A stretch of DNA of 46,065 bases from Escherichia phage Kati. Within the stretch, counting starts at the first letter, position 1; each line of letters opens with the position of its first letter. A program made the position numbers and the translations under genes. Under the pieces are notes generated by a model that did no database searches, had not been told where the DNA came from, and worked only from the letters and a program-made list of their open reading frames with translations. Positions 5,936 through 5,980 of the stretch are shown here, one piece after another. Where the stretch lies: sequence record PP925833.1. One strand, 5' to 3'.

Positions 5936-5980
5936 TGGCGCGCCCTGCAGGATTCGAACCTGCGGCCCACGACTTAGAAG
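5936..5980 (-). other. Phage attachment-site core: orphan 3'-terminal 45 nt of tRNA-Arg(UCU) (argU), anticodon loop through CCA, without the tRNA 5' half
   Basis: - strand reads CTTCTAAGTCGTGGGCCGCAGGTTCGAATCCTGCAGGGCGCGCCA, matching the argU 3' portion from memory; sequence 5' of this on the - strand (5981-6020) does not form D-arm or acceptor stem. Confidence 0.75.

Follow-up and report, generated by a model that had tools for sequence, protein, structure and literature searches.

The 46,065-nt stretch of DNA analyzed here (hereafter the window) carries the 3' half of a tRNA gene, lying between a phage integrase gene on one side and ompT, appY, and a full set of phage late genes on the other. 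The initial annotation took this arrangement as a hybrid att site shared by two different prophages in tandem, a prophage A that supplied the integrase and a prophage B that supplied the late genes. The question raised by the locus is whether the tRNA fragment marks a boundary between two elements or is the attachment site of one phage, and we addressed it through the structure of the junction itself, the organization of the window as a whole, and the arrangements found at the same tRNA gene in Escherichia coli chromosomes.

The argU-derived core and its phage arms

The 45-mer CTTCTAAGTCGTGGGCCGCAGGTTCGAATCCTGCAGGGCGCGCCA was located at 5936–5980 on the minus strand as the single copy in the window, and no copy was recovered in 100 dinucleotide-preserving shuffles of the window. 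As the initial annotation had supposed, these 45 nt could be aligned to the tRNA-Arg(UCU) gene argU. They equaled nt 33–77 of the 77-nt gene, starting with the first base of the anticodon loop and ending with CCA, at 45 of 45 positions and with 0 mismatches, the reference being the gene as annotated in K-12, CUVET18-789, and other E. coli. Two further bases (TT) that match both prophage ends extended the block to a core of 47 nt (5934–5980, minus strand). The identical 47-mer was observed at both prophage ends (attL and attR) in K-12, D6, and CUVET18-789, and also in phage ev243, and its length agrees with the 47-bp argU copy published as the attR of DLP12 (PMC6379469). As an exact and unique match whose 47-mer is common to attL and attR of lysogens, the segment 5934–5980 was assigned as the probable attP core (O).

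The fragment was indeed an orphan. No tRNA was detected in the window by either ARAGORN or Rfam, and a pattern search for the 32-nt 5' half of argU gave no match in the window at up to three mismatches, which bears out the earlier statement that the 5' half is missing. The sequence upstream of the 45-mer (…GTCGTTCTAGGAA) was unrelated to the tRNA 5' half, and the bases immediately before it, reading …AATGTCGTTCTAGGAA, bore no resemblance to that half either. Beyond CCA lay the 3' end of the integrase gene, and on the other side lay ompT, followed by appY; the flanks had thus been described correctly, with an integrase (of the DLP12/P22 type) on one side and an ompT/appY b-region on the other, as judged from profile matches to PF00589 and Omptin. 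The integrase gene (4757–5920, plus strand) encodes a tyrosine integrase of the IntD/DLP12 type of 387 aa (PF00589, E = 5.5e-47), and its stop codon is 13 nt away from the core.

Both flanks of the core proved to be phage DNA. The P' arm on the integrase side (5860–5933, minus strand), which overlaps the 3' end of int, was identical to the phage-side flank of attL beside the intact argU, and the P arm on the ompT side (5981–6110, minus strand) was identical to the phage-side flank of attR beside envY. In a five-way alignment, the integrase-side flank corresponded to the attL phage arm, the ompT-side flank corresponded to the attR phage arm, and the whole 220 nt matched the attP of ev243 apart from 1 nt. 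Judged from its sequence, the junction is a P-O-P' structure, that is, phage arm, core, and phage arm. The lysogens CUVET18-789, K-12, and D6 share the order fimZ – intact argU – intD … appY – ompT – 47-nt copy – envY; the spacing and orientation of int and core in the window match those of intD and argU in the same three genomes, and the tRNA fragment is oriented such that integration restores the tRNA beside int.

Short repeats were noted in both arms. Two copies of TGGGACAT lay 11 nt apart in the P' arm (5868–5875 and 5879–5886), and the P arm contained TGGGACGT at 6034–6041 together with a degenerate version of the double repeat at 6089–6108. These repeats are candidate arm-type Int sites, and their sequences are suggestive only: the motif TGGGACRT, picked post hoc, has three copies within 110 nt of the core (two in the P' arm and one in the P arm), and its four occurrences over the whole window, compared with 2.8 expected, are not above chance.

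A P-O-P' structure has two classical sources, namely the attP of a non-integrated phage and the internal junction of tandem prophages, of which the initial annotation took up the latter alone. The structure alone therefore fits a plain attP and a tandem-prophage internal att equally and does not discriminate between them. An exact 73-nt probe spanning P-O-P' had no matches in the viral and species-representative genome collections and was found in a single metagenome contig, OLEA01004031.1 (1776 nt), at 133–205; the length of this contig is insufficient to separate a free phage from a tandem array.

The window as one genome unit

The two ends of the window were informative. Base 1 is the A of the ATG of a cI-type repressor gene (1–627, plus strand; 208 aa, HTH and S24 peptidase domains, PF00717 and PF01381). 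At the other end, a divergent cro gene (45768–45968, minus strand; 66 aa, PF14549 P22_Cro, E = 4e-11) is followed by the 97-nt cro–cI intergenic (operator) region (45969–46065), which runs straight into base 1. When the last 700 and first 700 bases of the window were concatenated into a 1400-nt query, the query gave one gapless alignment of 1400/1400 nt at 99.9% identity across cro-oR-cI in D6 and other E. coli, and this query reached at least 80% coverage in 469 genomes. The ends of the window are thus neighbors, which indicates a circular sequence that was opened at the start of cI. The window begins exactly on the repressor ATG and closes with the 97 nt that precede this ATG, so that it covers exactly one genome unit, and it looks like a circular contig rotated on purpose to a gene start, not a random genomic slice.

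The gene content was that of a single phage. The window contains a single core, a single cosN, and a single immunity region; the head, tail, and lysis genes likewise form one set, and the gene content is precisely one lambdoid complement. The cosN sequence GGGCGGCGACCT (35385–35396, minus strand) lies approximately 180 nt upstream of the small terminase gene (Nu1, 34662–35207, minus strand), which is followed by the large terminase gene (32762–34687, minus strand), and the ev243 record begins with a sequence near-identical to this cosN. No internal repeats of at least 60 nt and no host genes were found within the window, and a search for duplicated or parallel gene sets and for outer att sites beside host genes in the window was likewise negative. 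Read from cos on the minus strand, the order is Nu1-A-…-J-lom-tail fibre-b region (appY, ompT)-attP-int-xis-…-cI-cro-…-Q-porin-lysis-cos, which is the lambda order. Counted from cos, attP is located approximately 64% along the map; the attP of lambda lies approximately 57% along its own.

The closest counterpart was a single prophage in E. coli D6, where one complete prophage lies between envY and argU in the order envY|core|ompT…J…capsid…terminase…lysis…quuD…cro|cI…yfdP-T-intD|argU-fimZ. Window positions 1–5980 were 100.000% identical to the D6 segment from cI to the attL core, and positions 5934–46065 were collinear with the D6 segment from the attR core to oR at 97.8–99.5% identity. The core-to-core unit measures 46,613 bp in D6 and 46,065 bp in the window, and D6 has approximately 0.55 kb of extra DNA in its lysis-proximal region, at the D6 KilA-N gene region. 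In a mismatch map against D6, there were 0 differences in window positions 1–9227 and 1 in 40000–46065. Approximately 425 of the 433 counted differences fell in two mosaic patches, one at 12.5–18 kb (12500–18000; tail fibre, lom, and the C-terminus of J) and the other at 36.5–38.5 kb (36500–38500; lysis-proximal), both of them at least 6.5 kb from the core. Relatedness to D6 does not shift at the core, which indicates that both arms belong to one phage lineage. A hybrid origin was also sought as a break in relatedness at the core, and this candidate was discarded, as the mismatch mapping against D6 shows no such break.

These data bear directly on the reading in which a hybrid internal att is common to two different prophages in tandem, one (A) bringing the integrase and the other (B) the late genes together with ompT/appY. 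An array of unlike elements does exist at the argU locus of strain 2017.09.02CC, so the arrangement has a precedent; against it, the comparison with D6 gave no difference in 1–5980, none in 5981–9227, and one in the last ~6 kb, the far ends of A and B turned out to be the two halves of one immunity region, and the genes amount to one lambdoid complement. We considered this reading highly improbable. The derivation of the two arms from different elements, on which the initial annotation relied, did not survive the comparison, since on either side of the core the window shows no difference from the single D6 prophage over several kilobases. Nor were the further core copies expected at the outer boundaries of A and B present: there is one core, and there are no outer boundaries, because the ends meet in the immunity region.

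A related proposal is that the site is the hybrid attP of a recombinant phage, formed when Int-mediated excision across tandem heterologous prophages fused an early arm from one of them with a late arm from another. Set against D6, the genome is mosaic in its tail-fibre/J and lysis regions, which would agree with recombination, and heterologous tandem arrays able to yield such products exist. However, identity to D6 is 100% for several kilobases on both sides of the core, with the patches at least 6.5 kb off, and ev243 and DLP12 of K-12 have P and P' arms that match those of the window. There is accordingly very little chance that the junction arose in this way.

Taken together, the joining ends, the collinearity with D6, the single core, the single cosN, and the absence of repeats within the window indicate that A and B are two arms of one phage. 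What had been called prophage A (1–5920: cI, the yfdP-T module, the xis candidate, and int) is the early-left arm of one genome, and what had been called prophage B (5981–46065: ompT, appY, tail, head, terminase, cos, lysis, porin, Q, replication, and cro) is its late/early-right arm. We concluded, with a probability of approximately 0.9, that the window is one complete 46,065-bp DLP12-type lambdoid temperate phage and that 5934–5980 is its attP core. The earlier interpretation was thus right in recognizing an argU-derived att site, here with P-O-P' structure, and wrong in placing it between two prophages, as the ends join and everything is collinear with D6.

The distinction has practical consequences. 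A tRNA 3' fragment beside an integrase gene in a phage-sized sequence is the attP of that phage, and reading such an attP as a prophage boundary would double-count prophages and mis-assign ompT, appY, and the porin gene to a separate element.

Tandem arrays at argU

Another source of the same junction would be a chromosome in which two identical or near-identical copies of the phage lie in tandem at argU, the window being a slice of that chromosome and 5934–5980 the internal att. Such arrays are documented: int, core, and ompT were contiguous in the chromosome of 79 of the 5426 complete E. coli genomes, and E28 has three cores in the order envY|core|copy|core|copy|argU, its two copies having the same protein accessions. 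Such arrays are generally explained by tandem integration at a shared att (PMC8112680). For the window to be a slice of this kind, however, the exact unit length and the start on the cI ATG would both have to arise by chance, with ends that abut without gap or overlap; moreover, the window holds no duplicated segment, one core, and no host DNA. We therefore regarded a tandem slice as unlikely. Even if it were correct, the junction would be a plain attP between copies of one phage, with no A/B hybrid.

Two chromosomal arrays observed at this locus deserve description in their own right. In E28 (NZ_CM143889.1, ~3.694–3.784 Mb), two prophage copies of ~44 kb follow each other at argU, together with three 47-nt cores; this array could reflect a true dilysogen, or it could be an artefact produced when excised or replicating phage DNA was assembled. 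In strain 2017.09.02CC (NZ_AP025214.2), a 3-kb remnant comprising a second ompT, a methyltransferase gene, and a truncated integrase gene is followed by a core and then by a full prophage that starts with ompT/appY. Neither envY nor an outer core was found within the 41-kb locus of this strain, which spans the ybcH-ompT boundary and stops short of argU.

If the window did derive from a cell with the phage as a tandem multimer at argU, a state seen in E28 and in at most 1.5% of complete E. coli genomes, then the junction would be an internal attP within the chromosome. With such a site, Int alone could remove or add prophage copies, and packaging could proceed from cos to cos without excision; the tandem state would affect the dosage and mobility of the ompT/appY/porin cargo. 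The phenomenon is known from lambda dilysogens, and the present case would only add another instance of it.

Integration, cargo genes, and comparison with DLP12-type phages

With the window read as one phage genome and the site as its attP, the established behavior of tyrosine integrases that target tRNA genes allows a scheme for integration and excision to be inferred. Int, together with host factors, would recombine the attP core with the identical sequence in chromosomal argU. Strand exchange would most probably take place within or close to the anticodon-loop segment, which lies at the 5' edge of the identity block and is where exchange is expected for integrases of this class. The phage-borne 3' 45 nt would then complete the tRNA gene at attL beside int, and this phage-supplied 3' part would keep the essential rare-codon tRNA functional; the displaced host 3' half would become the orphan copy at attR beside ompT and envY. 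Lysogens show the products predicted, namely an intact 77-nt argU beside int and an orphan 47-nt copy beside ompT/envY. Excision by Int and the Xis candidate described below would reverse the reaction and regenerate the P-O-P' junction of the window. A 3' portion of the target tRNA gene located near int is a known feature of phages (PMC1635311), and an attP built from a tRNA 3' fragment downstream of int is textbook; the site is already known in kind, with nothing new about it.

The integrase gene lies inside window positions 1–5980, where the DNA is 100% identical to D6 and the gene is annotated as intD in that genome. From position 4530 on, the DNA was also 99.7% identical to other E. coli argU prophage remnants with an intD annotation. 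A candidate excisionase (Xis) gene of 124 aa (4527–4901, plus strand; N-terminal HTH_17, E = 1.2e-8) overlaps the start of int by 145 nt and occupies the position of xisD in K-12. For this region, RefSeq gives only a 66-nt HTH pseudogene in D6 and E28, and xisD is a pseudogene in K-12. The DNA from 4530 on is also present in the sequenced phages ev243 and 2G7b, and thus the pseudogene label for the xis region in RefSeq may be wrong.

The b-region beside attP carries two cargo genes. The first, ompT (6404–7357, plus strand), encodes an omptin outer-membrane protease (PF01278 Omptin, E = 5e-130) and adjoins attP in phage ev243 too; the second, appY (7607–8356, minus strand), encodes an AraC-type regulator (HTH_18/HTH_AraC) and is annotated as appY in D6 and K-12. 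An intact porin gene of 365 aa (38538–39635, plus strand; Porin_1) lies between Q and the lysis genes, in the position of nmpC of DLP12 in K-12, where nmpC is split by IS5. Several outer-membrane and regulatory genes (porin, ompT, lom, and appY) are thus carried by the phage as cargo, and ompT and appY travel as b-region cargo directly beside the attP of a complete lambdoid genome.

Two further observations concern the tail-fibre region. A serine invertase of the Pin/Gin type (Resolvase and HTH_7; 10985–11575, plus strand) lies beside the tail-fibre and tail-fibre assembly genes. A search for an invertible tail-fibre segment acted on by this Pin-like invertase found no flanking inverted repeats, and the host-range switch therefore appears to be a remnant. 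In addition, the Rfam family IS009, a candidate small RNA, matched at full length with 220.9 bits at 11707–11905 (minus strand), and this match falls within the tail-fibre assembly gene at 11673–12248 (minus strand); the IS009 family may simply model prophage tfa coding sequence.

Among known systems, the attachment site of the window follows a familiar plan. In phage epsilon34, attP lies in a 43-bp block identical to argU just downstream of int, and the Int of epsilon34 is closest to that of DLP12, with approximately 80% identity (PMC2629481). In the window and in epsilon34 alike, and in the P22/thrW paradigm as well, attP follows int closely and is embedded in a block of 3' tRNA-gene sequence. 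The two differ in that epsilon34 is a P22-like Salmonella podovirus with a 43-bp block, whereas the window has lambda-like virion genes and a 47-bp block. The internal attP of E28 has a P-O-P' junction sequence identical to that of the window; in E28, however, two full copies flank the junction, with attR at envY and attL at argU, whereas the window is single-copy throughout.

The phage records ev243 (Nesevirus ev243, LR597639), 2H10, and 2G7b resemble the window more broadly. These records of 45.5–47 kb have int, core, and ompT contiguous, and they share with the window the uninterrupted succession J-lom-tail fibre-b region-ompT-attP-int-early genes. The ev243 record is linear, starts at cos, and has a lambda-type cos end in common with the window. 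Record names such as Lambda_ev243 follow the naming of the plaque-isolated temperate coliphages of PMC6969025, which suggests, as far as a name can, the same provenance. The early-left and immunity/replication modules set the phages apart: exo-bet-gam, N, rexA, O, and P of ev243 are lambda-like, whereas the window combines the yfdP-T module with another cI/cro and a ymfL/HTH-replication module. In addition, an alpha/beta hydrolase gene takes the place of appY in ev243. When the first 25 kb of the window was compared with INPHARED, coverage was 54% for ev243 (97.1% identity) and 66% for 2H10 (96.3%), and no phage record covered more than 66% of this portion.

The comparison with DLP12 is the closest in kind. 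DLP12, a cryptic prophage of E. coli K-12, is arranged as argU … intD … appY-ompT, and later papers (PMC6379469, PMC2629481) cite Lindsey et al. 1989 for it. In K-12, the same 47-nt core is present at both of its ends (564755–564801 and 586057–586103), and the integrase type, the xis position, the ompT/appY b-region, and the Q-porin-lysis module are all common to DLP12 and the window. DLP12 differs as a 21-kb integrated remnant with attL and attR; it carries IS insertions and lacks head and tail genes. The window, by contrast, is the full 46-kb genome in the attP configuration, and it has cos and an immunity region along with structural genes and a porin gene that are intact. In its IntD-type integrase, its 47-bp argU core, and its ompT-bearing b-region, the window is of the DLP12 type, and it represents an apparently intact, full-length relative of the K-12 fossil, a modest point that sequenced relatives document already.
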